Of a stretch of DNA of 64,000 bases, positions 12,259 to 49,084 are shown piece after piece. Position numbers and translations under genes: made by a program. Each line of letters begins with the position of its first letter. Within the stretch, counting starts at the first letter, position 1. The stretch is from assembly GCA_017412115.1 (NCBI GenBank), contig JAFPYR010000098.1:37171-101170 (forward strand), written 5' to 3'. This DNA comes from Bacteroidales bacterium (GTDB lineage Bacteria; Bacteroidota; Bacteroidia; Bacteroidales; UBA3824). The notes beneath the pieces are model-generated. The model saw only the letters and a program-made list of their open reading frames with translations. It was not told the DNA's origin and made no database searches.

Positions 12259-13167
12259 TTATAAAAAATAGAGAATAAGACACTTAATTTTATCTACAAA
12301 ACCAACAGTTTTAAATGCAGACTCAAAAAACTTCCTTTTATAAATTTTTAATGTCGGTTTATTTTGTTTATCACAACGCCTTAATAACAAGTTTGTTGCG
12401 CACAATGCTTCATAACTGCAATACGAAAAAGCTATTTCATTCTTACCTCGTAATAACATTTGCATTATTTCAAATGCTTTTAATTCAGAAATCATTTTAA
12501 CGGAAAATGCAACCTTTGTCTTTCCTATCGCACTGTCATTCCGTTGAAAATAATTGTAAATTATATCATTACAGATTACAACTTTTTGACAATGTAATAC
12601 ATATTGCAAAACGAACAATCTATCTTCATTGTAATAAATATCCTCGTTGAATCTTATAGAAAAATCTTTGATTATTTTTGAATAATACAATTTTGGAGAA
12701 ATATATCCGAGATAGTCTTTTTTTCCGCTTTTAAATAGTCTAGTGGGGAAAAAATCACCTGAAATATTCTCATTTCTAAGTCTATTATTTTGCTTACCAC
12801 CAATAATTCGAATATCTCCAATAACTAAGCAATTCGATTCCGAATTTGCTAATAATATTTCTACAAAATTATTTTCTATCCAATCATCAGAATCCACAAA
12901 CCCAATCCACTCACCTTTTGCTTCATCTAATCCCTTATTTCTTGCAGCAGAAACCCCTGCATTTTCTTGATGAAACACTCTAAACCGCTTGTCTTTCTCC
13001 GCATATTCGTCGCAAATCTCGCCCGAATTATCAGGACTACCGTCATCAATCAAAATACATTCCCAATCAGTAAACGTCTGTGCGACAATACTATCAAGAC
13101 ATTTCCTTAAGTATTTTTCAACTTTATAAACGGGAACTATGATGGAAATTTTGGGAGAGAAATTCAT
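12259..13167 (-). CDS. Glycosyltransferase family 2
   Basis: GT-A N-terminus ISIIVPVYKVEKYLRKCLDSIVAQTF ... ILIDDGSPD ... AARNKGL ... FVDSDD. Confidence 0.85.
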   Translation of the reverse strand: MNFSPKISIIVPVYKVEKYLRKCLDSIVAQTFTDWECILIDDGSPDNSGEICDEYAEKDKRFRVFHQENAGVSAARNKGLDEAKGEWIGFVDSDDWIENNFVEILLANSESNCLVIGDIRIIGGKQNNRLRNENISGDFFPTRLFKSGKKDYLGYISPKLYYSKIIKDFSIRFNEDIYYNEDRLFVLQYVLHCQKVVICNDIIYNYFQRNDSAIGKTKVAFSVKMISELKAFEIMQMLLRGKNEIAFSYCSYEALCATNLLLRRCDKQNKPTLKIYKRKFFESAFKTVGFVDKIKCLILYFL

Positions 13168-13176
13168 AATGCTTTA

Positions 13177-13737
13177 TTAATGTTTAAGACATCCTATCGG
13201 CACAACCATAACACCATCTTTACGTGTGTAAGCGTATTGCCCCAATCCTGTCAAAACCATCTTAAAAGACGGTTGTTTTCCTTTGAACAATTCATCAAGA
13301 CTTACTTCACCCGAAGATTCTTGCGATTCCCACAAAGACATCGGTCGCATTGTAAGCCAACTAAAACGTCCTGCACCTGAATGATGGATTTTTTCTGTAT
13401 GGGCAGGAACAGCCGAGCCAGTCAAAATAAACTGTCCCACACTTATATCTCTGTGATCAACTTCAAAACGAATTGCATCCCATAATGCAGGTGCTGTTTG
13501 CCATTCATCAATCAAACGCGGCGTTGCACCTTTAAGGAGAAGTTTTATATTCGTATCAACAACAGACAATAATTCTTTTTCAACGGCAGGGTCGTTCATA
13601 TATACGACACTTTTCGACTGTTGTTCGGCAGTTGTAGTTTTGCCGCACCATTTAGGACCTTCAATCAAAACTGCACCCGCACCTTCCAATTCATCTTTCA
13701 ACAATTGGTCAGCAATTCTTTCCCGATATTTCGCCAT
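13177..13737 (-). pseudogene. AAA ATPase (AAA_14/DUF4143 family), internally deleted remnant
   Basis: Walker A (EGPKWCGKTT) and HSGAGRFSWLTMRPMSLWES are present. After about 160 aa the protein jumps to what looks like the family's extreme C-terminal tail (YAYTRKDGVMVVPIGCLKH). It is 186 aa against 436 aa for the intact paralogue at 31117-32427. Confidence 0.65.
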
Positions 13738-13759: not shown

Positions 13760-13767
13760 CAAATATA
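13760..13767 (-). promoter_or_regulatory. Bacteroidetes-type -7 box (TATATTTG, within TATATTTGCGC)
   Basis: Minus-strand TATATTTG lies 22 nt upstream of the ATG at 13737. The same 11-mer, TATATTTGCGC, precedes the second ATPase gene. Confidence 0.45.
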
Positions 13768-13807
13768 AACAAAAAAAGCATTGAAACAAAGTATTTTAGT
13801 TATTTTT

Positions 13808-13876
13808 GTTGTGGCATTTGACGGATTTTTGTTGTGGCATTTGACGGATTTTTATTGTGGCATTTGACGTTTTTTT
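13808..13876 (-). repeat. Three tandem direct repeats, 23-bp period
   Basis: The core TTGTGGCATTTGACG occurs at 13809-13823, 13832-13846 and 13855-13869, just upstream of the ATPase -7 box. Confidence 0.9.
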
Positions 13877-14141
13877 ATAAATGGCTATAAAAAAGAGAAT
13901 TCAGCCAAACCTTTTTTCTTACCACACTAGCCCCTTGATTTTCTTGATGAATAACCTTAAACCTATAGTCTTTTTGTGCATATTCATCGCAAATTTTTCC
14001 TGAATTATCGTGACTACCGTCATCTACTAAAATACACTCCCAATCAGTAAATATCTGAGCAACAATACTGTCAAGACAACGACGAAAATATTTCTCTACT
14101 TTATAAACGGGAACAATGATGGAAATTTTAGGAGATGACAT
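13875..14141 (-). pseudogene. Truncated 5' fragment of a GT2 glycosyltransferase gene
   Basis: The first ~75 aa (ISIIVPVYKVEKYFRRCLDSIVAQIFTDWECILVDDGSHDNSGKICDEYAQKDYRFKVIHQEN) are paralogous to the N-terminus of 12259-13167. Similarity is lost near 13.93 kb and the ORF stops at 88 aa. Confidence 0.75.
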
Positions 14142-28821: not shown

Positions 28822-29832
28822 CTATCTATTTGATTGAGCAGTAAACGGTCTGTTAAACAAAACTTTAAAAAGTCCGATCCAATAGCCGATACCGTATGAA
28901 AGATGAACATTGAAAAAAATCCACGGCATAAGACAAACCATTGATGGTCTTTTTGTTACTTTTGCACTTTTGACACCCATCATGATTCCAATTGCAAAAT
29001 ACAAAATTAGAAATCCAAGGTATAGCCACAAAAATATTTTTGAAAAAACGCTTAATAAAGCACCAAAAATCAAGGCTGCAACAAATAATGGCGGAACAAA
29101 TTGTCTGATTGTTGCTGCTTGTCCTAACTTCTTATTAACCAACGGTTTGAAAAGTCCGTACTGATAAAACATTTTTCTTACTTTAGAAACTTTATCTCGG
29201 GCAAAATATTTTATTCCTAATGTCGGAATCAAGTAAATAGATCCACCGTTTTTTATAATTCTCGCATTAAGTTCATCGTCCTGATTACGAATAAGTTCCT
29301 CATCGTAAAGACCAACTTTGTCAAAAACTTCACGTTTGAAACAACCAAAAGGAACACTATCCGTTTTAACATTTTCTTTTGCGCCAATGCGATGAAGCGA
29401 ATTTCCCATACCAAATGGATTCTTCAAACACTCGGCAATTGCATACGAAATATTTGTTTCGTTACAAGGCAATGTTATAAAAACACCTCCGACATTGTCT
29501 GCATCATACTTTTTCAAATTGTCAACAAGACACGAAAAATAATTTTCAGGATATTCACAATGTCCATCCAAACGGATGATAGTATCACCTTTTGAAGCAT
29601 TAATACCGATATTCATCGCATACGGTACAGTACGGTAAGGATTTTTCAAAAGTTTTATGAAAGGATACTTTTGGGAATATTCATAAACAATTTGAGCGGT
29701 TTTATCGCCACTCATTCCATCAACAAAAAATATTTCCAAATCATCTTTTGGATAATCCTGCTGCAAAACAGAATCAATACATTTTGCAATGTATTTTTCT
29801 TCGTTATATATAGGACAAATTACAGATAACAT
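28822..29832 (-). CDS. Glycosyltransferase family 2 with C-terminal membrane helices (ExoA-like)
   Basis: LSVICPIYNEEKYIAKCIDSVLQQDYP ... FFVDGMSGDKT ... RLDGHC ... NQDDELN, followed by 3-4 TM helices. Confidence 0.85.
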   Translation of the reverse strand: MLSVICPIYNEEKYIAKCIDSVLQQDYPKDDLEIFFVDGMSGDKTAQIVYEYSQKYPFIKLLKNPYRTVPYAMNIGINASKGDTIIRLDGHCEYPENYFSCLVDNLKKYDADNVGGVFITLPCNETNISYAIAECLKNPFGMGNSLHRIGAKENVKTDSVPFGCFKREVFDKVGLYDEELIRNQDDELNARIIKNGGSIYLIPTLGIKYFARDKVSKVRKMFYQYGLFKPLVNKKLGQAATIRQFVPPLFVAALIFGALLSVFSKIFLWLYLGFLILYFAIGIMMGVKSAKVTKRPSMVCLMPWIFFNVHLSYGIGYWIGLFKVLFNRPFTAQSNR

Positions 29833-29841
29833 TTGTTTTAT

Positions 29842-30204
29842 TTATTTTTCTGTTACTTGCCAATGTCCGCCCTTATCAGGACCGACACGGGTAATTAAAC
29901 CTTGTTGTTTAAGTTTATCAATATTATTGCGGACTCCTCTGTCAGATAATCCAGTTATTTCACATAATTCAGGAATTGTGATGTTTGGATCATGTTTCAT
30001 ACACGATAAAATTTTCACGGTACTTTTTCCATTATCATTTTCTGGGGCATTTAATTGACCCAAACCTGATATTTTAATAAAAACTATCGTAGAATGTGTT
30101 ATTTCAGACTTAAAACTTATTGTTTGACCAGTAAGTGAAGTCCACGTTTTAATTTTGTCAATACCATAACCTACATTTTCCGCAAGTTTTGCCGCACGAA
30201 AAAA
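29842..30204 (-). pseudogene. 3' remnant of a RecG-like/AlbA_2-HATPase_c_4 'putative DNA-binding' regulator gene (C-terminal wHTH only)
   Basis: 120 codons open from a TAA at 30205-30207, with no plausible start. Encodes FRAAKLAENVGYGIDKIKTW ... then a wHTH (ITIPELCEITGLSDRGVRNNIDKLKQQGLITRVG). Shares a 193-bp repeat with the next remnant. Confidence 0.6.
30012..30204 (-). repeat. Direct repeat copy A (~193 bp, roughly 90% identical to 30613-30805)
   Basis: Base-by-base comparison: TTTTCACGGTACTTTTTCCATTATCATTTTCTGGGGCATTTAATTGACCCAAACCTGA... through ...CCGCAAGTTTTGCCGC, with scattered mismatches. Offset between copies is 601 bp. Confidence 0.9.
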
Positions 30205-30523
30205 TTAATAAATTAACATATTTTCATCATCATACCTATAACAGAAAATATCTGTTTTTTTGCAGCATTTAAAACATCGGAAAAAGCCTATGATTTCATT
30301 ATATAAGCGATTTACCTTTTTCAGTTAAATAATATTTTTGAGTTGGACTATTTGGAGAGTCGGGTTGTGTCATTGATATAATATCATAATCTAATAAACG
30401 TTTTACAATATTTTCTCGTACATACCTACGACTTGAAATCTCTACAAACTCTTTTATTTCCTTTAACGATAATTCCTTACCTAAAAGATATTTCAACAAC
30501 GAAAGTAATTGCTCATCTAATCT

Positions 30524-30583
30524 TACTTGACCACTTACTTGACCACTTACTTGACCACCTACTTGACCACCTACTTGACCACT
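30524..30583 (-). repeat. Coding 12-bp tandem repeat x5 (TACTTGACCAC[T/C])
   Basis: Five contiguous units, encoding GQVGGQVGGQVSGQVSGQV in the remnant ORF. Confidence 0.95.
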
Positions 30584-30612
30584 AGTTCCGATAACCTCAG
30601 TCTGTAAATTTC

Positions 30613-30805
30613 TTTTCACGGTACTTTTTCCATTATCATTTTCTGGGGCATTTAATTGACCCAAACCTGAAATTTTACTGAAAACTATCGTAGAATGTGT
30701 TATTTCAGACTTAAAACTTATTAATTGACCAGTAAGTGAAGTCCACGTTTTAATTTTATCAATACCGTATCCTGCATTTTCCGCAAGTTTTGCCGCTCGA
30801 AAAAG
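30613..30805 (-). repeat. Direct repeat copy B (pairs with 30012-30204)
   Basis: See copy A. The repeat covers the FRAAKLAEN...NDNGKSTVK coding segment in both remnants. Confidence 0.9.
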
Positions 30806-31116
30806 TTTAATTATGATTGGGTTGCGTGGCAGTGAAATTGCCTCTTGTTCTACTTTTTCCACAGGAACTATAAATCCGCCCGGATTTTGAAATTCAATAC
30901 GATTAGTAAAAACCCTTATCGTCGGGTGCATAGGGCTAAACCAATCTGAATGTGCAAGAAAGTTGATCAATCCTTCCCTCAGCGCATACAACCGAGATTC
31001 ATCATCCGGCGAAACTCCCATTTCTGTAGTAGTAAAAGGATTGTCAGCATAAAGTCTAAGCCGTTGAATTATAACATTATAGTATTCCCAAAATTTAAAT
31101 AAAAATTTACTCTAAT

Positions 31117-32427
31117 TTATTGCAATTCTTTTTGAATCAAGGACATTGCATACAACGGAATATCAGTAATGTTATTTCCTTTTTCATACTTCGACATTGA
31201 AAATCTTAGTACATAACGAGGCTGATAACGTTTAGTGAATACAGAAAGTGATTTTGCCCGCAAATTACGCTCGGCTTTTACTTCTATGGGCACAACTAAT
31301 CCCATCGTTTGTATAAGAAAATCTACTTCAGCAACACTATTTTCCGGAGACCAATAGTATATTTGGTAACCACCCAAAGACTGTAACTCCTGCAAAACAA
31401 ATTGCTCTGTCAATGCGCCTTTGTATTGCATAAAAAAGTCGTTTCCTTGAATCATCGTTCGTGCATCTAATCCCGACATCGCTCCTAAAAGACCAATATC
31501 CAATAAGTAAAGTTTAAAAGCATCAGGGTCTTCAAAACCTGCCAATGGAATCTCGCCTCCAAAACATCGACACACCTTATATGTCATACCTGCATCACAA
31601 AGCCATTGTATTGAAGTTTCAAAATCTCTTGCCCTAGCACTTTGTTTTAAAGCGGTATACACATATTTTTTATTTTCTTTTGACAACTGCGCAGGAATAC
31701 TATTCCAAACCATCAACATTCTTTTTACAATCTCCTTCGGCGGGTGCTTTGAAAAATCGTCTTTATAAGCTTTCAACAACTGGTTTTGAATCTTCCTAAC
31801 CTGTGAGTAATCCTTAGTTTCTATATACGTTTTCACAACCTCCGGCATACCACCTATGTAATAATATTCACGAAGCCATCCTATAAATCTTTCATGAAAA
31901 ACGGAAATACTCAACCAATCTCCTGTTTGCAACATCTGAGCCATCCCTTCCTTATCGTCTGCCATCAAAAACTCTTCAAACGTAAAAGGGAAAATAGATA
32001 CAAACTCAACTTTACCAACAGGAAATGAATCATTTTTATGATCTATAACGCCCAATAATGAACCCGCTGCAATTATATGCAATTCCGGCATTTTATCATA
32101 AAAATATTTTAACGCCAACAACCCTCGACGTGCAGATTGAATTTCGTCAAAGAAAAGTAAAGTTTTGCCTGCTACAATAGGTATACCTTTTGCTTGCTGT
32201 ATTGTCAATAAAATACGTTCAATATCAAAATTAAGTTCAAACAAACCTTGTAAATCATCATCAGTTTCAAAATTAACTTCAACAAAATTTTGAAATTCAG
32301 TATGCCCCAATTCACGAGCCAACCACGTTTTACCGGTTTGTCGCGCGCCCTCCAATATAAGTGGCTTACGGTGTTGAGCATCTCGCCTACACCAATCTAC
32401 CAACGTTGACATTACTCTTCTTTTCAT
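31117..32427 (-). CDS. AAA family ATPase with C-terminal DUF4143 domain (intact)
   Basis: Walker A (LEGARQTGKTW), Walker B (LLFFDEIQ), IIAAGSLLG, then a DUF4143-like region (KYVYTALKQSARARDFETSIQWLCDAGM) and a C-terminal EVDFLIQ...IPIEVKA nuclease-like tail. It has its own -7 box. Confidence 0.85.
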   Translation of the reverse strand: MKRRVMSTLVDWCRRDAQHRKPLILEGARQTGKTWLARELGHTEFQNFVEVNFETDDDLQGLFELNFDIERILLTIQQAKGIPIVAGKTLLFFDEIQSARRGLLALKYFYDKMPELHIIAAGSLLGVIDHKNDSFPVGKVEFVSIFPFTFEEFLMADDKEGMAQMLQTGDWLSISVFHERFIGWLREYYYIGGMPEVVKTYIETKDYSQVRKIQNQLLKAYKDDFSKHPPKEIVKRMLMVWNSIPAQLSKENKKYVYTALKQSARARDFETSIQWLCDAGMTYKVCRCFGGEIPLAGFEDPDAFKLYLLDIGLLGAMSGLDARTMIQGNDFFMQYKGALTEQFVLQELQSLGGYQIYYWSPENSVAEVDFLIQTMGLVVPIEVKAERNLRAKSLSVFTKRYQPRYVLRFSMSKYEKGNNITDIPLYAMSLIQKELQ

Positions 32428-32448
32428 ATATCATTCATATTATTGGCG

Positions 32449-32456
32449 CAAATATA
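32449..32456 (-). promoter_or_regulatory. Bacteroidetes-type -7 box (TATATTTG, within TATATTTGCGC)
   Basis: Minus-strand TATATTTG lies 21 nt upstream of the ATG at 32427. The 11-mer is identical to the one at 13757-13767. Confidence 0.45.
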
Positions 32457-32486
32457 CTATAATTAACTTAGTTATACAATTTTTTT

Positions 32487-32570
32487 CACATTTTCTCGAC
32501 GAACTTTTAAGCATACTCTCACATTTTCTCGACGAACTTTTATGTATACTCTCACATTTTCTCGACGAAC
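32487..32570 (-). repeat. Three tandem direct repeats, 33-bp period
   Basis: The core CACATTTTCTCGACGAAC occurs at 32487-32504, 32520-32537 and 32553-32570, between the Wzy stop (32603) and the ATPase promoter box. Confidence 0.9.
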
Positions 32571-32602
32571 ATTTCGTAATTCCTATATAATTCTGTCTTT
32601 AG

Positions 32603-33907
32603 TCATTTTGCTAATTCAGTCTTCTTTTCTTCGCTCATCATCAATAGCAACATCATAGCCCATGGAATAAACATCAATCCTGCATTTCGAGTTAACATAT
32701 TTTCAAAAAGCAAATTTACCATTACCGCCACAGCGAAACCAATTAACGGGAAGTATCTGTTTTTAATTCCATAGTAAAAAGCAGGAAAAAACATCGCTAA
32801 TAACAACAACAATCCAATCACACCCATCGAAAGTTGTGCGTAAATATATTGATTGTGGGTACCAAATCTAAAATCAACACCGTTTTTTTTGTATTGATTT
32901 TCAAGTTCGGTATCTGTGTCGCCGATACCGACTCCTAGAATGGGGTGTTGTTTAATGACTTGAATAGCGTTTTCCCAAATTATTATACGGTCGTTATCTT
33001 TCTCTATTTTTTCTTTCCGTTGCTCTGAATTTCCGTTAAAAGCTTCAACTAAATTTGTAAAAATCCATGATAAACGACTTGATTGTACAAGTTTAACGGA
33101 CATTAATGATATTACGACCATACCCACAATCAATACAAAAAACTTCTTTTCTATTATTGAGTAAAAAATAACAAATATCACAGCCACAATAACTACAGCA
33201 ACCAAATTAGCCCTACTTTGAAGAAGAAAAATAAAACCCAACAAATACAAACTAAAAAAACAAATACCAATTTTATATATGTTGTTTTTTATTGTATGAA
33301 GTTCACTCAACATAATAATCAGAGCAAACAAAATATATAATGCAAAATAAGAAGGATGAAAAAAATGCGATAAGTAATTGTAAGAAAAATGATTATACCC
33401 CGCAGTTATTGAATCGTATGCGTTACTATAAGACCAATCTATATTCAAAATAGTAGAACTAAATACTATTCCATTAGCCGTTTCTTGCCAACAATTTTTA
33501 TAAGATAAAACTAAACATACAATAGAAGACACTAATACTCCGGCAACAAATGCTGCAAAAGGCTGTTTATAGTTTCTTAAAATCCCCGCTGCTTTAAAAA
33601 AAAGTATATGCCATGAAAACGCTACAATTAGAAAATACCGTCCAATGAGTTGAAGTCCACGTCCTATTTCATCGCTCCATAAAAGACTTACAATACACCA
33701 AAACAAATATACATTTGCAGCAAAAATATAGAATTTTTCACCTTTACCAAGTTTCTTAAAACTGAAATTTTTATACATTTCTTTATCAATCAAAGTAAAA
33801 GCGACCGATAAAAACCAAAAAATATTTGACTCTGTAATATTAAATGGCAGAAGGAATACAAAAATAAGAAAAGAAATTAACGATATTTGTTTTATGTTTT
33901 TAAACAT
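32603..33907 (-). CDS. wzy: O-antigen polymerase/ligase family membrane protein (Wzy_C domain)
   Basis: About 11 TM helices, LLQSRANLVA, and a periplasmic loop with GVGIGDTD ... GTHNQYIYAQLSMGVIG, typical of the Wzy_C/O-antigen ligase family. Confidence 0.7.
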   Translation of the reverse strand: MFKNIKQISLISFLIFVFLLPFNITESNIFWFLSVAFTLIDKEMYKNFSFKKLGKGEKFYIFAANVYLFWCIVSLLWSDEIGRGLQLIGRYFLIVAFSWHILFFKAAGILRNYKQPFAAFVAGVLVSSIVCLVLSYKNCWQETANGIVFSSTILNIDWSYSNAYDSITAGYNHFSYNYLSHFFHPSYFALYILFALIIMLSELHTIKNNIYKIGICFFSLYLLGFIFLLQSRANLVAVVIVAVIFVIFYSIIEKKFFVLIVGMVVISLMSVKLVQSSRLSWIFTNLVEAFNGNSEQRKEKIEKDNDRIIIWENAIQVIKQHPILGVGIGDTDTELENQYKKNGVDFRFGTHNQYIYAQLSMGVIGLLLLLAMFFPAFYYGIKNRYFPLIGFAVAVMVNLLFENMLTRNAGLMFIPWAMMLLLMMSEEKKTELAK

Positions 33908-34435: not shown

Positions 34436-35584
34436 TTATTTCAAGAAATTAGAAAGTAAAGAACATTCTTTGTCTGCAAGAAAATAATGTCGAGATTTCA
34501 AATCAACATATCTTTTTTTAAAAGTAACATCATCAAGAACAACATTTTTCTTAGAAAAATAAGCTTGAAGCAAAACTGTTGTAAATGAACCAATTACAAA
34601 GTTAGAACTTGCAATAGATTCTACAATAGGCACTTTTTTTGTATCTTCAATATCTTCTAAAGATACATATTTTTTCAAAACAGACATATTCGTATACCGT
34701 GGATGAGGACGATATTTTATCGTTTCACCATTATTTACCAACTTTTGCATTGAATTAACAATGCTGTGAATTTCCTCCTCTGTTTCTTCGCCTAAATAAT
34801 ACTTATAATCTGCGAAACTCTCTTTTGAATAGTTCTTTTCACAATCAATAGTCAACGATGGTGGTACTGCAATCACAAATTGTGATTCTTCTGCACCAAG
34901 TTCCATAAACAATTGTTTATAATGTTCGTGCCAAATATAACATTCGTCAAAGTGAAAAAAAGTATCCCGAATATAATATAATTTTTCTCCGTGCATAACA
35001 TTTATGTGCTTTATTCCAAAAGAATTACAATATTCAGTTAAAACAGACGAAGTAAAAGAATATTCTGCACATACTTGTATGGCATTCGGCTTATATCTAT
35101 GAATCATGTAACTATAAAGAGAAATTTTTACAGAAACCTTTAATGTCAAGTACGGAGAAAATGTTCTGAACAAACATTTCAAACAAAATATCCAATCATT
35201 AAAAGTAAACATTTTACCAGAATACCATTCTTGAAAACTATATTGATATTTGCTCCTAAATTCACTCGGCAAAACCTCTTCCATACTTTTATACTCAGAA
35301 ATACAATCAACTTTATATAATAGTCGTTTAGAAACAAACAAACTTCTTATTAGAGCAATCAACCAATAAAAAGGCAAAACAATCAAAGAAACGATTTCAA
35401 AAAGAATACGTTTCCACAGCGGAACAAAAAACATCTGACATAGATATTGTTTTTTTGTTCTATCAAAATTATCAATAGGCTTCTTTAAGGTCTCAAAAAA
35501 TGCCCGTTGACTATCAACTGTAACATCAAACATACCTTTATCACCTTTTGCAAGGAAATTTGTAAGTTTAAATATATTAATCAT
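34436..35584 (-). CDS. Hypothetical membrane-anchored protein; possible GT-B-type (sialyltransferase-like) glycosyltransferase
   Basis: One TM helix (ILFEIVSLIVLPFYWLIALI). The C-terminal half carries KYRPHPR and VIGSFTTVLLQA, reminiscent of the H-P and S-S/T motifs of bacterial sialyltransferases. No firm family assignment. Confidence 0.35.
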   Translation of the reverse strand: MINIFKLTNFLAKGDKGMFDVTVDSQRAFFETLKKPIDNFDRTKKQYLCQMFFVPLWKRILFEIVSLIVLPFYWLIALIRSLFVSKRLLYKVDCISEYKSMEEVLPSEFRSKYQYSFQEWYSGKMFTFNDWIFCLKCLFRTFSPYLTLKVSVKISLYSYMIHRYKPNAIQVCAEYSFTSSVLTEYCNSFGIKHINVMHGEKLYYIRDTFFHFDECYIWHEHYKQLFMELGAEESQFVIAVPPSLTIDCEKNYSKESFADYKYYLGEETEEEIHSIVNSMQKLVNNGETIKYRPHPRYTNMSVLKKYVSLEDIEDTKKVPIVESIASSNFVIGSFTTVLLQAYFSKKNVVLDDVTFKKRYVDLKSRHYFLADKECSLLSNFLK

Positions 35585-36732
35585 CTTTTCCTTTTATAAT
35601 ATGCAACAATTCCTTTGACGGGATTTTTAAAAACGTAATAAAATATTAAAATATCAAATGCTCCAGGGAAAGCAATCCAATCAAGAGACATTCTTATAAA
35701 TACCGCAACAAGAGTAATAAAAATCAAACGGTCTCCTTTCTTAAATGAAACTATTGCAGTTCTTAGCAAAAGGAATATAAATAATAGAAACGGAATCAGA
35801 CCGTATTTAGAGTGAAGAATTAAAAATGAATTATGAATATTACCTTTATAATGAACCAAAAGAGGAAAATCACCAGATTCGTAATTAACTCCTAATACAA
35901 AATTTCTGACATTTAAAAACAAACCTGATAAATATTCAGACCAAATTTCTATTCTGCTGGATTGCATTCCAAATTTTTCATACTTTTCCTTGATATTATT
36001 TGTAAATGAAAAAGTATCATAAACAAAGAAAACAACAAAAAGCAAAACGAAAATTGAACACAAAATAATGATATTGGCTACACTGATTGTTTTTTTATTA
36101 ACCCAATATATTCCCAATGCCAAAAAAAACACAGACAAAAGTCCGGTTCTTGATGTTGACCAAACCACAATTAATCCTATAAACAAAATAGGGAAATAAC
36201 TAAGAGTGTCAGAAATTTTTCTATCAGACTTAAAATAAGAAAAATGTTTTAACCTTTTATGGTGATACGCTAAATAATACAAGATTAGAGAAAGAATACA
36301 TATTGACGAAATATTGTTTTCGCTACCACCATAAATCACGCTTTGAACAGGAACACCGATAATCATATAGACAGCAAAAACACCACCAACAAGATATACC
36401 AAAATCGTTGCGAGTTGTACAGAAATTCCATACCGCAAAAGGACTAAACCAAGTCCCATATAAGACCAAATCCAAAGTAAATTTTGAAAATTCGCATTAT
36501 GATTATAAAGTATTGAAAATGTCATAAACAAAGAAATCACCAATCCGAAAATTAATGAAGTGATCTTTGCAAAAGGTTTAGCGAAATATAAGTAATGAAT
36601 ATAAGCACATAACCCCGGCGCAACCAACAAAGCGTTACGCACAATATCAGGCATATTTATTAAATGAGTAAACAAATACAAGATGCAAAAAACAGCAACC
36701 CATACTTGCGTTTTTATCGAAAAGCTATCCAT
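35581..36732 (-). CDS. Second O-antigen polymerase/ligase-like membrane protein (Wzy_C-like)
   Basis: About 10 TM helices, WSTSRTGLLSVFF, and GNIHNSFLILHSKYGLIPF. 4-nt and 8-nt overlaps with its neighbours. Confidence 0.55.
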   Translation of the reverse strand: MDSFSIKTQVWVAVFCILYLFTHLINMPDIVRNALLVAPGLCAYIHYLYFAKPFAKITSLIFGLVISLFMTFSILYNHNANFQNLLWIWSYMGLGLVLLRYGISVQLATILVYLVGGVFAVYMIIGVPVQSVIYGGSENNISSICILSLILYYLAYHHKRLKHFSYFKSDRKISDTLSYFPILFIGLIVVWSTSRTGLLSVFFLALGIYWVNKKTISVANIIILCSIFVLLFVVFFVYDTFSFTNNIKEKYEKFGMQSSRIEIWSEYLSGLFLNVRNFVLGVNYESGDFPLLVHYKGNIHNSFLILHSKYGLIPFLLFIFLLLRTAIVSFKKGDRLIFITLVAVFIRMSLDWIAFPGAFDILIFYYVFKNPVKGIVAYYKRKR

Positions 36733-38005
36733 TGATTAGTTTTAACTTCAGCGTTCTTTTAACAAGCATTCTCACCAAAAAGAATTGTAAAAACTGTGTT
36801 GCGACATATAATACGCATGTTAACAATAAAGAATAACGTGTTAACCACAAAGACACCAATAAATGCAAAACAGACGAACCGAAGGTTATATACATTATTT
36901 TTTTTGTTTCTTGAAAAAAGAACAAATACGGTGAATATATTAAATAGAAGCACACAAATAAGCCGTAAAAAGAAAGAATATAAAAATACTTAACAGCTGC
37001 CACATATTTTTCAAAAAATAAAGGAATAACAAAAACAACGCACAAAGAAATAAAAATAGCAGCACCAATAAATATCCGATATAAAAAATTTCTTTGCTGT
37101 TTTAACACTGATAATTTTGTGCTTTCACTAATCGTTTTATCACCAAGAGTTTTATATATATCTACGCTAAACGACTGATTGAATCCAAAGCCAACCATCG
37201 TTATTGCACTCGTAAAGGTATAAGCAAAATTGAATAAGCCCACATCCGTTAAATCATAAAATTGCTTAATAATATAAGTATCACCTCCTTGTCTGATAAA
37301 TATAGCACCCAAATGTGGTATCAATGGAATTCCCCACAAAAGCATTTTTTTAAAATACTTGATATCAATACGACTCAGAAAATTTTGTTTTAACAACAAA
37401 ACAATGCCAATCAATCCCACTAATACAGTACAAAAACCTTGAGCATATACTCTGCCTACCCATCCAAAATCTAATAATTGTACAAGTATAACCGTCAATA
37501 TAAAATTAAGTACAGCATTTCCACAACTCAAAATTCCATACCAAAATACATCTGATTTAACACGAAGATAATCTAAATAAAGATTGAAATAGACATTAAA
37601 AAAAGATATTAAAATTCCTATAAACAAAATTTCTAACGGCAAATCAATCCGTACAGAGATAAAACTACCACCAATACCAAGCACTATGCACAACATTGCA
37701 GAAACAAGCAATGAAACCACAATAATACCTGAAAAAACTTGACGGACACCAAACACACCGTCTTTAAAAAAAGCAACAGAAAGATACCCTTCCGTTGACA
37801 TCGCTTGAAAATATCCGACAAGCATTATTACTGTACCAAATACACTCAATAATCCATAATCATACGGAGAAATAAAACGAGCGATTATAAGCAACAGCAA
37901 AAAAAAGAATCCCTTGTTGACAAAAGAAAATAGCGAAAATAAAAGACCATTTCTTAAAGTCGGATTATGAAATGCCGATAATATCTTGCTTAGTAATGAA
38001 TTCAT
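36725..38005 (-). CDS. wzx: Oligosaccharide flippase (Wzx, MOP superfamily)
   Basis: 426 aa with ~12 TM helices. The N-terminus (LRNGLLFSLFSFVNKGFFFLLLLIIARFISPYDYG) is typical of flippases. Confidence 0.75.
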   Translation of the reverse strand: MNSLLSKILSAFHNPTLRNGLLFSLFSFVNKGFFFLLLLIIARFISPYDYGLLSVFGTVIMLVGYFQAMSTEGYLSVAFFKDGVFGVRQVFSGIIVVSLLVSAMLCIVLGIGGSFISVRIDLPLEILFIGILISFFNVYFNLYLDYLRVKSDVFWYGILSCGNAVLNFILTVILVQLLDFGWVGRVYAQGFCTVLVGLIGIVLLLKQNFLSRIDIKYFKKMLLWGIPLIPHLGAIFIRQGGDTYIIKQFYDLTDVGLFNFAYTFTSAITMVGFGFNQSFSVDIYKTLGDKTISESTKLSVLKQQRNFLYRIFIGAAIFISLCVVFVIPLFFEKYVAAVKYFYILSFYGLFVCFYLIYSPYLFFFQETKKIMYITFGSSVLHLLVSLWLTRYSLLLTCVLYVATQFLQFFLVRMLVKRTLKLKLING

Positions 38006-45979: not shown

Positions 45980-46557
45980 CAGCGGTTGTATTGGTGATAA
46001 AGTTCTTTTGAAAGGTTTACTATTTCAGGATTTTCATTCTGAAACAATCCTGTCGGGTCGTCATTGCAACCGTCAAAAAAACGGTCAATGTCAATTTTGT
46101 ACGAGTTTTTGAGGTTTGTGTCTCGCAACATTGGCTCGTAAAATGTCCATTCAGGAAACTTGTGCGAAATTTCTGACAAATCCTGACCTGATAAATTTTT
46201 GCACCTTTCTATAACCCTGTCCAATACTTCTGTATCTGTTTGCGAAAACTTTTTTGTGTCGGGTTCGCTGATTGCACTATATTTATGGTTTTCAGTAGGA
46301 CGGATATACATTTCGAAATAATTGTTATCCGTCTTCAACCGTGTCTTTTTTCCTTCCAAAAGATTTTTGGCATCGGTGGGCACTACACCTTTGGGCATAG
46401 CATAATAAACGTCGCCGCTTATAGTGCGTCCGTACCGCCGCAGATGGCAACGGTCAGAAAGCCAAAGAATTTTATAGGCTTTTATATTGTCTATTGTCCT
46501 ATCAGGCTGTTTAGAAGCGATATACGTCAAAGCCTGAATTATTTTTGTAGTGTCCAT
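45979..46557 (-). CDS. Panacea (DUF4065) / SocA-like antitoxin-domain protein
   Basis: KAYKILWLSDRCHLRRYGRTISGDVYYAMPKGVVP and LSGQDLSEISHKFPEW match the DUF4065 pattern (K-l-KLLY ... G-pi-g ... a-GPV ... LS--sH----W). Confidence 0.7.
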   Translation of the reverse strand: MDTTKIIQALTYIASKQPDRTIDNIKAYKILWLSDRCHLRRYGRTISGDVYYAMPKGVVPTDAKNLLEGKKTRLKTDNNYFEMYIRPTENHKYSAISEPDTKKFSQTDTEVLDRVIERCKNLSGQDLSEISHKFPEWTFYEPMLRDTNLKNSYKIDIDRFFDGCNDDPTGLFQNENPEIVNLSKELYHQYNR

Positions 46558-46573
46558 CGCAAATTATTTTTTG

Positions 46574-46581
46574 CAAAAATA
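46574..46581 (-). promoter_or_regulatory. Bacteroidetes-type -7 box (TATTTTTG) for the Panacea pair
   Basis: A perfect TAnnTTTG on the minus strand, 16 nt upstream of the ATG at 46557, inside the 52-bp gap after legC. Confidence 0.45.
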
Positions 46582-46609
46582 GGAAAATAATACTCAACTT
46601 ATTGAGCAA

Positions 46610-47764
46610 TTAACTTTTTTTAACCCTTACGCTACTCGGTATGTTAACCACTCTGTCGGCGAAGTAAATCGTATTTTCCAAACCGTCGTTTTGACAATGC
46701 TCAAACATTGGCAGACGATTCATCAGTTCCCAAATTGGACGAGTCATTACGCCATTGTCGTTGCTGAATTGCAGAAAATCTTGCTGCATATCCTTGTCTT
46801 TCAAGATGATTGCATTGAGCCAATAATTACTGCGACAATCATCGGGTTCGCTGAAAAACTTGATATCAGGAACATTCTTGAAAAACTCCTTGTATGCCTC
46901 TGCCGTTTGTCGCTTGCTTTCGATGTAAGAGTCGATGTTTTCCAACTGTGCGCAGCCGAGGGCGGCATTGATGTTTGGCATACGGTAATTGTAGCCGATA
47001 TGGTCGTGGCGGAACTCCCAACGGTGCGGAATCTTTGCCTGAGTTGTGATGTGCTTGGCATACGCACCGAGTTTTTCGTCATTGAAAAGCATCATTCCGC
47101 CGCCGCCAGTAGTGATAGTCTTGTTGCCATTGAAACTCAACGCTCCAATCTTGCCGAATGTGCCTGTGTGTTTGCCCTTGTAAAGACTTCCAATGCTCTC
47201 GGCGGCATCTTCCACGAGTTCGATATGGTATTCGTTGCAGACCTCAACCAATTCGTCCAAATGGACGGGATGACCAAAAGTATGCATCGGGACACACGCT
47301 TTTACGCGACGATGTGTATTCTTGTTAAAACATTGATTGTCTTTGATTTCGGCGTTCTTTTCGAGCCAATTTCTTACTGCCGCCGGCGAAAGTCCCATCG
47401 TGTCCCTGTCAACATCAATGAAGACGGGAACAGCACCGATGTAACTCAAAGCGTTGCAGGTTGCAATAAAAGTCAGGGCTTGTGTCAACACTTCGTCGCC
47501 GCGCTCCACGCCCGCCAACATCAGCGAAATATGCAGTGCATTAGTGCCGCTCACGCATACAACCGCCCTCTTGCAGCCTGTAAACTTTGCAATGTCTTCT
47601 TCAAATCTGTCAACGAACTTGCCGACACTCGACACAAAAGTAGTGTCGATACATTCGTTGAGATATTTTTTCTCGTTACCCGCAAACACAGGCACCGACA
47701 GCGGGATGAAGTCGCCGCCGCCATACCATTCACGGATAAAGTCAGTTATTTTTTTGAATTCCAT
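46610..47764 (-). CDS. legC: LegC-family aminotransferase (UDP-4-amino-4,6-dideoxy-HexNAc transaminase)
   Basis: FIPLSVPVFAGNEKKYLNECIDTTFVSSVGKFVDRFEEDIAKFTG ... ALTFIATCNA ... ALSFNGNKTITTGGGGM. Confidence 0.85.
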   Translation of the reverse strand: MEFKKITDFIREWYGGGDFIPLSVPVFAGNEKKYLNECIDTTFVSSVGKFVDRFEEDIAKFTGCKRAVVCVSGTNALHISLMLAGVERGDEVLTQALTFIATCNALSYIGAVPVFIDVDRDTMGLSPAAVRNWLEKNAEIKDNQCFNKNTHRRVKACVPMHTFGHPVHLDELVEVCNEYHIELVEDAAESIGSLYKGKHTGTFGKIGALSFNGNKTITTGGGGMMLFNDEKLGAYAKHITTQAKIPHRWEFRHDHIGYNYRMPNINAALGCAQLENIDSYIESKRQTAEAYKEFFKNVPDIKFFSEPDDCRSNYWLNAIILKDKDMQQDFLQFSNDNGVMTRPIWELMNRLPMFEHCQNDGLENTIYFADRVVNIPSSVRVKKS

Positions 47765-47766
47765 TT

Positions 47767-48975
47767 TTACATTTTTTGGTCGAGGTTCTTACCCTTTTCT
47801 TCGTGTTGGAAATTGGGAATGAACCCTTTTATTGCGTCAACAACCTGACCTTTGGTAAAATCGGGTTTGCTGAAAATGTTTTCTAATTCTGTGAAGAAAC
47901 TGTTGATTTCGTTCATTGGACGGCGTGTGGTCTGTTCCACGACACCAAGTGCCGAAAACCTCTGCATATTGATTTTTTCGCCCGGCACAAAAAACTCCTC
48001 GTAAGCCTTTTCGCCAGTGGTGTCGCTTTTGAAATATACCACAGGGTATTTGTCGGAATCGTATGACATTTGGTCTGCATATTCCTTGGCAGCGTTATCA
48101 TTCTGACATTCAACCTTTTGAAATCCTTGTGCCTTTACGAAGTCATCGCAAACCGTTGAGAAAGTTAGCATTTGGTCTTCGCCGAGTTTTGGGAAGAAAA
48201 CCTCGCCGCCTTTGCCGAGAATACAAGCCAACATACATATCTGACCGCTTTCTTCGGGCGAAACGAAATATCTTTTTACGTCGTTTGGCGCAGCGAGAGG
48301 CTGTTTTTTCTGCAAACGGTGAATCCAACCGTCAGGCAGCGAACCATTGGAGAAAGCAACGTTGGCAAATCTTGCCGTAGTTACCTTGAAATGAACGTTG
48401 TATGCCATCACCAAATCTTCCATAATCCTTTTGCTTGCGCCCATAATGTTGACGGGGTTTGCAGCCTTGTCGGTGGAAACACAGAAAAAATGTTTCGGCG
48501 GATACACACAAAGCAAATCCATCAGTTTCTTCGCCTTGATGTCGTTGTTTTCGATAAGAGCCTGAACGGAGTATTTGTCTTTTTCGCTTCTGACGTGTTT
48601 GTGCGCCGAAAAATTGGCAACAATGTCAAAACCCTTCTCCTCTCTGAAAATCCTCTCGAAAATCGGGTCGGCAAAATTCAGAGTGTAACACCTAAATTCG
48701 TCGGGACAAAACAGCCCCAGTGTAGAACGCACATCCCTGACAAGTTCCGCCAAGCCGTTTTCGTTCAAATCGACAACGACCATACTTTGTGGTTCAAACC
48801 TCAGTACCGCCTTTATAAAAGACGATCCGATAGAACCTGCACCACCGATAACGCAGACTTTTTTGTCTTTGATTTCTCGGCTCAAAGCATCTTTATTAGC
48901 CTCAATATCAGGCAAAAACATACTTTCAGGACGGAAAGTAACGCTATCAGAAATGAATTTGTTAAGGTTGAACAT
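47767..48975 (-). CDS. NDP-sugar 4,6-dehydratase (CapD/PglF/LegB-like, soluble form)
   Basis: Rossmann motif VCVIGGAGSIGSSF ... FSAHKHVRSE ... STDKAANPVNIMGASKR. Start set at the first ATG (MFNLNKF); the tracked ORF starts at a TTG 21 nt upstream. Confidence 0.8.
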   Translation of the reverse strand: MFNLNKFISDSVTFRPESMFLPDIEANKDALSREIKDKKVCVIGGAGSIGSSFIKAVLRFEPQSMVVVDLNENGLAELVRDVRSTLGLFCPDEFRCYTLNFADPIFERIFREEKGFDIVANFSAHKHVRSEKDKYSVQALIENNDIKAKKLMDLLCVYPPKHFFCVSTDKAANPVNIMGASKRIMEDLVMAYNVHFKVTTARFANVAFSNGSLPDGWIHRLQKKQPLAAPNDVKRYFVSPEESGQICMLACILGKGGEVFFPKLGEDQMLTFSTVCDDFVKAQGFQKVECQNDNAAKEYADQMSYDSDKYPVVYFKSDTTGEKAYEEFFVPGEKINMQRFSALGVVEQTTRRPMNEINSFFTELENIFSKPDFTKGQVVDAIKGFIPNFQHEEKGKNLDQKM

Positions 48976-49084
48976 AAAATCACAATCAATTTGCAATAAA
49001 GCAAACTATTATAAAATAATGGATTAATAAAACTATTTTATGATAAAAATATTATTAACTAATGCTTTTACTTTCGTATCCACA

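Follow-up and report, generated by a model that had tools for sequence, protein, structure and literature searches.

What is a gene for a predicted ATPase doing at the junction of two glycan modules? The question arises in a stretch of 64,000 nucleotides (the window) from a rumen Bacteroidales bacterium of the GTDB lineage UBA3824 (GenBank assembly GCA_017412115.1, contig JAFPYR010000098.1, positions 37,171 to 101,170). In the window, an islet at 29842-32602 sits in a long co-directional glycan locus, between a Wzy_C and a GT2 gene, and contains an intact 436-amino-acid (aa) open reading frame (ORF) that is a full-length, ordinary member of PDC-S01, a phage-defence candidate in PADLOC. The explanation that we favour, at a probability of roughly 0.6 for its two parts taken jointly, combines a history of the islet reconstructed by strain comparison with a mechanism of self-binding and autoregulation. 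A stand-alone cassette with the ATPase gene would have displaced part of a resident regulator gene, and the ATPase would bind the repeat array in front of its own promoter.

All elements of the islet were found where a preliminary description of the sequence had placed them, namely a triple 33-bp repeat, a -7 box and the intact 436-aa ATPase, as was a second, deleted copy at 13.2-13.9 kb. The cassette and the genes that flank the islet are as follows.

32603-33907, minus strand: Wzy_C polymerase ORF, flanking the islet
32486-32584, minus strand: three-box array with a 33-bp period (tandem repeat), the distal end of the putative inserted cassette
32449-32456, minus strand: Bacteroidota-type -7 box TATATTTG, 21 nt before the ATG, the predicted promoter
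31117-32427, minus strand: intact 436-aa PDC-S01 ORF with AAA_14 ATPase, predicted winged helix and DUF4143 PD-(D/E)xK domain (Pfam, PADLOC)
28822-29832, minus strand: GT2 ORF, flanking the islet on the other side

The history of the islet was read, by blastn and junction alignments, from L164, a related strain with 83% identity across the 6.6-kb upstream module; a further locus, L163, turned out to come from the window's own strain (99.9% identity) and was unusable as an independent comparison. L164 has no ATPase. Directly after Wzy, with an ATGA overlap, it carries an intact 478-aa gene with AlbA_2, HATPase_c_4 and HTH_24 domains, followed by a 174-aa ORF (Fic-like_C) and a 79-aa ORF (HTH_24), and a 195-bp block precedes each of the 3' ends. 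Alignment to this strain resolves the islet into the following parts.

32583-32606, minus strand: vestigial first 7 codons and stop (MTKDRII, stop) of the putatively disrupted regulator, with an ATG that overlaps the Wzy stop (ATGA; L164 alignment)
31097-32580, minus strand: putative inserted cassette of array, promoter, ORF and ~20 bp, absent from L164, which has ~730 bp of regulator instead
30299-31096, minus strand: apparent 3' half of the disrupted regulator, with partial HATPase_c_4 and a Fic-like_C winged helix (240-aa ORF at 30299-31021; Pfam)
30613-30807, minus strand: 195-bp direct repeat, copy 1, a conserved segment before an alternative 3' end
30012-30206, minus strand: 195-bp direct repeat, copy 2, 94% identical to copy 1
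29842-30063, minus strand: apparent orphan alternative 3' cassette, a 73-aa ORF with HTH_24 only, ending 9 bp before the GT2 start

The alignment with L164 breaks off at ~32580, the outer edge of the array, and resumes at 31096, 21 bp past the ATPase stop and level with about codon 253 of the L164 regulator. Because homology breaks at these two points, a 1.48-kb unit of array, promoter and ORF appears to have replaced ~730 bp of the regulator (codons ~9-252). The junctions agree with the family-wide homology limits of the cassette, since DNA similarity among homologous loci extends from 90-150 bp upstream of the ATG to the stop codon; the closest homologue (84% aa identity, locus L002) has unrelated flanks. 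The earlier idea of a self-contained, self-promoted unit is borne out by these limits and by L164, which lacks exactly the array-promoter-ORF segment. We conclude that the intact AlbA_2/HATPase_c_4/HTH regulator would be the earlier state and that insertion of the cassette would have broken that gene. At the original junction, the start of the regulator would have overlapped the Wzy stop and the gene would have been followed by orphan alternative 3' ends; arrival of the cassette would have left the regulator as promoterless debris.

What remains of the regulator differs from the two promoterless remnants of RecG-like genes that had been described. The ORFs are indeed truncated at their 5' ends, but AlbA_2 (PF04326) was absent from both window regulator ORFs in a Pfam search, and we find one disrupted gene and an orphan 3' end in place of two decayed genes. 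At the nucleotide level, the 3' half and codons ~253-415 of the unbroken L164 gene are 94.7% identical, and the ORF of this half at 30299-31021 combines HATPase_c_4 (positions 3-66 of 89) with a C-terminal winged helix. The ORF at 29842-30063 lacks an exact -7 box and has its equivalent in the 79-aa ORF of L164. Full-length relatives of the remnants, 400-435 aa long, carry AlbA_2, and the window ORFs are best read as fragments, not as members of the AlbA_2/HATPase_c_4 family. From the alignments, the remnants would comprise two pieces, namely the 3' half of a single gene, fused at the 195-bp repeat to what was once an orphan end, and one further orphan 3' end; the 195-bp block is present in three copies in L164 and in two in the window.

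In polymorphic toxin loci of the Rhs and contact-dependent inhibition (CDI) types, a complete gene has promoterless alternative 3' ends behind it, each with a conserved homology block in front. The regulator remnants recall such orphan C-terminal cassettes. Unlike in Rhs/CDI loci, the gene is a putative AlbA_2/HATPase_c_4/HTH regulator and the swapped part is a winged helix (HTH_24 versus Fic-like_C). The segment L164:6586-9002 corresponds to window 29842-31096, and its promoterless 3' ends resemble displaced orphan C-termini or a reservoir for the swapping of DNA-binding domains. Within the regulator fragment, a 12-bp repeat of 5.2 copies at 30522-30583 encodes a (GQVG/S)n linker. The RNA-run contig X19 skips 36 bp (3 units) there, and the copy number of the linker repeat thus varies between strains.

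The second part of the explanation concerns the array. In the window it consists of three identical 19-nt cores, GTTCGTCGAGAAAATGTGA, at 32552-32570, 32519-32537 and 32486-32504, where 0.02 matches would be expected by chance, and it is the top-scoring tandem repeat of the 64 kb. The -7 box is the sole intergenic minus-strand TAnnTTTG in the islet and is kept at the same place in most homologues. To see how general this arrangement is, 80 GTDB loci were fetched in which the ATPase is 44-84% identical to that of the window, 75 of them with enough upstream sequence. In 51 of the 75, Tandem Repeats Finder (TRF) reported a tandem repeat no more than 300 bp ahead of the start, against a background of 0.24 repeats/kb. 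Strong arrays, with a unit >=80% identical to its neighbour, were present in 33/75 loci, every one with a period of 32 or 33 bp, whereas 11/204 control genes with an upstream region of their own reached the strong-array score (Fisher p = 2.5e-13); at least 4 of these 11 controls are confirmed DUF4143 paralogues. Successive TCGTY cores are spaced by 32 or 33 bp in 83/97 cases, and in 25 loci 46 bp separate the start of the last core from the -7 box. Within the unit, TTCGTC-N3-AAAA-N-GTG is conserved and the other half varies freely. Based on these results, the phased upstream array is a family hallmark of PDC-S01, one that is not described in the papers we found.

The arrays might instead be bound by a host factor, or be slippage-prone elements upstream of promoters that have nothing to do with the ATPase protein. 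The boxes are rich in A/T tracts and are placed like UP-like or activator sites, as such a reading would have it. They nevertheless differ between paralogues of the same genome: distant paralogues (26-49% identical) that adjoin the primary gene have their own arrays with unrelated boxes, and the two cassettes of the window carry different boxes within one genome. The boxes are also kept across phyla with different promoter types, the TTCGTC...GTG box accompanying the gene in Bacillota- and Gastranaerophilales-labelled loci that lack the Bacteroidota -7 box. In addition, the period is subfamily-specific (33 versus 23 bp), and arrays are rare upstream of other genes. We consider a host factor, or a role unrelated to the protein, very doubtful.

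Arrangements vary around this theme. Boxes are inverted in one locus outside the Bacteroidota-type promoters, and in some clades and on a Bacteroides fragilis plasmid they stand 66 bp apart and flank the -7 box. Paralogue clusters occur in 8/80 loci; at L033:5177-9462, three DUF4143 paralogues lie side by side, one of them divergent, each with a different upstream array. The otherwise near-identical loci L005, L006 and L007 have 2.8 versus 3.8 array units, the units being 100% identical, and array expansion and contraction may tune expression. In L005, a 32-bp x3 array (AAAATCGTGGAATTGAATCCATGAATTTTGCC) at L005:3271-3440 lies upstream of an MgsA/RarA-type AAA+ gene (L005:3441-4748), and phased arrays may thus extend beyond DUF4143 genes.

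The second cassette of the window belongs to a different subfamily, and its parts are the following.

13177-13737, minus strand: PDC-S01 pseudogene of 186 aa with an in-frame internal deletion (PADLOC, comparison with L083)
13760-13767, minus strand: -7 box of cassette 2, TATATTTGCGC, the same as that of the ATPase cassette
13802-13876, minus strand: array of cassette 2, 23-bp x3.3, core CCGTCAAATGCCACAA (tandem repeat)
13875-14141, minus strand: GT2 N-terminal remnant, an 88-aa ORF ~83% identical to the 5' end of the intact GT2 at 12259-13167

The pseudogene matches the PADLOC profile PDLC04790 over its first 157 residues only. Between two 12-bp microhomologies, 705 bp were lost in frame (junction ~13267-13278), and the winged helix and nuclease domain are gone; an intact 425-aa version in locus L083 is 99% identical over the first 157 residues. 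L083 shares the GT2 remnant, the array, the ATPase and the first ~300 bp of the next GT2, and the glycan genes beyond are unrelated on both sides. This comparison shows that cassette 2, which lies inside a truncated GT2 gene, lost the 705 bp later.

A survey of 80 metagenome loci of subfamily 2 gave the same picture at another pitch, with a 23-bp period in 47/48 strong arrays. These arrays hold 2-8 copies of GCCAA-N-YCGGAAA-like boxes that vary by clade, and copy number shifts among close relatives, ranging from 3.5 to 8.4 units between otherwise near-identical loci (L084-L093; L100-L143). Where subfamily 2 proteins are 90-91% identical and have different boxes, 7-10 of the ~40 substitutions fall within 20 residues, concentrated at the turn and the N-terminus of the recognition helix of the helix-turn-helix (HTH). 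It is suggestive that the recognition helix changes along with the box type. Only such close pairs were informative; taken over the whole protein, the mutual information of alignment columns with box type was dominated by phylogeny and gave no localised peak.

The protein itself offers the domains that self-binding would need. Its main features are listed here, invariance being judged in 33 homologues that are 61-86% identical to the window ATPase.

32326-32349, minus strand: Walker A GARQTGKT, residues 27-34, invariant
32137-32154, minus strand: Walker B FFDEIQ, residues 92-97, with D94 and E95 invariant
31594-31632, minus strand: predicted winged-HTH recognition helix, residues 266-278, FETSIQWLCDAGM, followed by a beta-hairpin wing (AlphaFold2 secondary structure)
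31198-31443, minus strand: predicted PD-(D/E)xK nuclease-fold core, residues 329-410, with invariant E341, D369, E382 and K384 (alignment and AlphaFold2)

Pfam detects AAA_14 (4e-27) and DUF4143 (3.5e-34) in the 436-aa ORF, the pair of domains that defines the single-gene PDC-S01 type, and residues 1-433 cover positions 3-434 of 439 of PADLOC profile PDLC04786 (E 1.9e-170). The ORF matches no NCBIfam family, and a sequence search of the PDB gave marginal P-loop matches only. The AlphaFold2 (AF2) model (predicted local distance difference test, pLDDT, 82.5) matched in Foldseek the Pyrococcus abyssi Walker ATPase 2qen (2e-7), 2qby, origin-DNA-bound Orc1/Cdc6, subunits of the origin recognition complex (ORC) and STAND proteins. 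Taken together, Walker A, Walker B and the modelled fold point to an ORC/Cdc6- or STAND-like AAA+ protein, and the model places a helix-turn-helix with a beta-hairpin wing at residues ~231-308.

Because the cassette holds no other gene and because the boxes follow the paralogue and not the host, the ATPase probably binds its own promoter array. The winged helix most likely recognises the clade-specific boxes, phased at 32-33 bp (23 bp in the other subfamily) before its own promoter; several protomers would assemble side by side on the array and would set the expression of the gene, and ATP-driven oligomerisation would gate the predicted nuclease against a target. Put as a rule for the family, that every PDC-S01 gene bears 2-8 clade-specific boxes at a subfamily-specific pitch, and that the encoded AAA+ winged-helix nuclease recognises and assembles on this array, the proposal is tentative and falls somewhat short of even odds.

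Repeated binding sites beside an initiator's own gene typically give autoregulation. Archaeal Orc1/Cdc6 with its origin recognition boxes (ORB) and plasmid Rep proteins with their iterons likewise combine AAA+ and winged-helix domains (Foldseek 2qby, ORC subunits) with repeats beside their own gene. Unlike these initiators, the window protein has a C-terminal predicted nuclease domain and its copies are scattered in chromosomes; unlike ORB or iteron modules, its repeats form short head-to-tail arrays before a promoter, with no evident unwinding element. A replication-origin reading was rejected, as cumulative GC skew is monotonic across 29-34 kb.

The nuclease-like tail had been suspected from the segments EVDF...IEVKA, which occupy residues 367-385. 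On the AF2 model, the invariant D369, E382 and K384 lie on a PD-(D/E)xK core of the order alpha-beta-beta-beta-alpha-beta (H329-351, E355-359, E368-374, E377-383, H392-401, E406-410), with E341 as a further invariant residue, and a separate model of residues 262-436 (pLDDT 78.8) shows the same core. The top Foldseek matches of the tail are nearly all nucleases of this fold, McrC and Bax1 (probability 0.92-0.99) followed by DdmD, Can2, Cas4 and Hjc, though the scores are weak (E 2e-3 to 0.5, TM 0.3-0.4). As modelled, then, the nuclease-like tail appears real, but it is not new, DUF4143 having been listed in the PD-(D/E)xK superfamily since 2012 (PMC3424549). McrBC- and STAND-type nucleases (McrC, DdmD, Can2) likewise couple a P-loop NTPase to a PD-(D/E)xK effector. 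The window protein differs from McrBC in that a single 436-aa chain carries both ATPase and predicted nuclease, separated by a winged helix, and from the McrB GTPase in that its ATPase is an AAA_14 domain of ORC-like fold, the E-values of its tail matches being weak (2e-3 or worse).

The statement that DUF4143 ATPases have no assigned function does not hold as it stood, given the 2012 superfamily placement (PMC3424549) and the PADLOC type PDC-S01. In the published accounts, PDC-S01 (AAA_14 PF13173 and DUF4143 PF13635; COG1373) is a fusion of an ATPase with a PD-(D/E)xK domain and ranks fourth in frequency among prokaryotic 'defence' types (PMC12988326); in rumen genomes it is reported to be the single locus met most often (PMC12988326, PMC13356809). 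The window protein is no different from it, with the same architecture in a single-gene type, often multi-copy, found in variable loci; the array, too, is family-wide, yet not mentioned in the papers we found. We found no functional study of the family in the literature on AAA_14, PF13173, PF13635 and COG1373. The gene family and its nuclease tail were thus already catalogued, and the 'defence or selfish' idea for this ATPase is the PDC-S01 hypothesis already published, still unproven. What is new here is the array as a family hallmark, the L164 pre-insertion comparison and the true nature of the two remnants.

A single-gene anti-phage system, in which the ATPase senses infection, the PD-(D/E)xK domain degrades phage or host DNA and the arrays merely tune expression, would fit the full-length match to the PDC-S01 models, the intact, conserved nuclease motif and the embedding in type I restriction-modification (RM), BREX and DISARM loci, for which alone the family was nominated (bioRxiv 10.1101/2024.01.29.577857). 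Embedding in variable loci, the glycan locus included, may however mean insertion tolerance and not defence. Furthermore, in the one phage test of the family that we found, a PDC-S01 member was one of eight candidates tested in E. coli B against T4, T5 and T7, and was outside the four protective ones (PMC12881386). The immediate neighbours of the 80 homologues can be read both ways. They comprise 123 non-redundant proteins over 170 Pfam families, with housekeeping genes dominant. Among them, the commonest are another AAA_14/DUF4143 gene (10 and 7 members), integrase N-terminal domains (4), N6_Mtase (3) and Fic (2), and PADLOC recognises MTase_I (3), mad2 (3), GajA (2) and 7 further PDC-S01 genes. 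The family clusters with itself and has a modest association with defence and mobile genes, and no conserved partner gene stands beside the ATPase across the 80 loci. Only 12 weak or fragmentary matches were obtained among 50,697 phage records, so the gene is not typically phage-borne. We regard a dedicated anti-phage role of this kind as possible but unlikely; in the explanation that we favour, the family would comprise defence candidates or selfish genes.

A selfish element would differ in that its nuclease cuts DNA in or close to its arrays, or at empty sites; recombination stimulated by such breaks would spread or keep the cassette, and seams in variable loci would arise as a by-product. 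Several observations are in keeping with this, including the discrete cassette boundaries, the presence/absence polymorphism at one site, the unrelated context of the L002 homologue, the synteny breakpoints at which both window copies lie, the differences in array copy number among close relatives and the copies on Bacteroidales plasmids, where homologues occur for example beside two HipA toxin-antitoxin modules. However, the cassette has no target-site duplication, inverted repeat or conserved 3' element and made a ~730-bp replacement, not a clean homing event; there is no family-wide glycan or seam bias; and decayed copies (cassette 2 and a variant with a 238-bp deletion) show that the gene is easily lost. 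The latter variant is a contig of run X24 that joins 31626 to 31865, skipping 238 bp inside the ATPase gene, and a frameshifting deletion thus exists in another sample. Selfish spread by cutting appears rather improbable. A transposon, insertion sequence (IS) or integron cassette was rejected, the junctions being a replacement without duplication, with no recombinase and no conserved 3' element. One plasmid copy is a 48%-identical homologue (WP_005868811.1) on the ~98-kb plasmid NZ_CP069564.1 of B. fragilis FDAARGOS_1225, where two AAGTGCGGAWAAATGTAT boxes (L082:5870-5965), 66 bp apart, flank the -7 box and two HipA-HTH toxin-antitoxin pairs adjoin; plasmids of near-identical size and match occur in many Bacteroides and Parabacteroides species.

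The ATPase had also been proposed to recur at recombination seams of variable loci and, possibly, to promote module exchange. The first proposal holds for the window, where both copies lie at breakpoints (L164, L083), but not for the family. Taking likeness to any of the 37 glycan-locus proteins of the window as the test, glycan-like genes lie within 10 kb in 7/80 primary loci (12/1018 genes) and within 3 kb in 5/80 subfamily 2 loci (9/431 genes). Over these 160 homologous loci there is no glycan-locus bias, as 1-2% of flanking genes is about the genomic background. A dedicated factor for glycan-module exchange would account for the finding of 2/2 window copies at module junctions of one glycan locus. 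L164, however, lacks the ATPase and still shares this junction, with other modules downstream of it. The 195-bp repeats and the conserved 5' ends of the GT2 genes (83% identical) suffice as recombination substrates. The proposal is unsupported, highly improbable and close to refuted. The position in the glycan locus would instead reflect insertion tolerance at a recombination-prone seam and not a function in glycan synthesis.

The islet does mark a true module boundary, because L164 homology stops at 29855 and the genes downstream of that point differ. GC content in the islet (0.33-0.36) is slightly higher than in neighbouring genes (0.28-0.31), a gap that is not decisive, and a terminator scan found no convincing terminator within it. 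The upstream module contains two Wzy_C-type polymerase genes (32603-33907; 35581-36732) and a single gene for a Wzx flippase (36725-38005). The gene call for the first Wzy in the near-identical L163 is split into ORFs of 298 and 74 aa, which a frameshift or assembly difference may explain. Further along, GC rises to 0.40-0.47 at 46000-49000, compared with ~0.30 elsewhere in the glycan locus, and the genes at 46610-48996 differ in composition and may be conserved or foreign.

Several points weigh against the explanation that we favour. Tandem repeats within 300 bp upstream are missing in 24/75 loci and the array is strong in only 33/75, while a few loci, for example L039, show no boxes whatever. 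The position of the last box, about -58 to -41, fits an activator no less than a repressor, and in other clades the boxes flank the -7 box. The covariation of helix and box is post hoc, confounded by phylogeny and located within a generally variable segment. The cassette has no terminal inverted repeats, target duplication or recombinase, its sole flanking inverted repeat being one 14-nt A/T-rich pair. Finally, RNA support is weak. One bovine rumen metatranscriptome, which also holds the L164-type allele, gave contigs with 0-1 mismatch on the ATPase (31306-31556; 32328-32478) and Wzy at a depth of ~3; as one contig spans the predicted promoter, Wzy read-through or DNA carry-over may account for the signal. 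Expression of the ATPase is plausible, not established.

For the glycan locus, the islet marks a real module boundary, and the ATPase seems to be a passenger whose arrival inactivated the resident regulator at a recombination-prone seam. For the family, which is counted in tens of thousands of genomes, the array suggests a testable mechanism of DNA recognition; a natural presence/absence pair fixes the cassette to within a few bases, and a plasmid copy exists in cultured B. fragilis. If the proposed mechanism is true, the protein would be a sequence-specific ATPase-nuclease anchored at its own gene, and both its expression and its nuclease would be turned on once it left the array or was titrated by foreign or damaged DNA. 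This would be the first mechanistic handle on a very abundant, uncharacterised 'defence' family, and it might explain why its cassettes are found at recombination seams.

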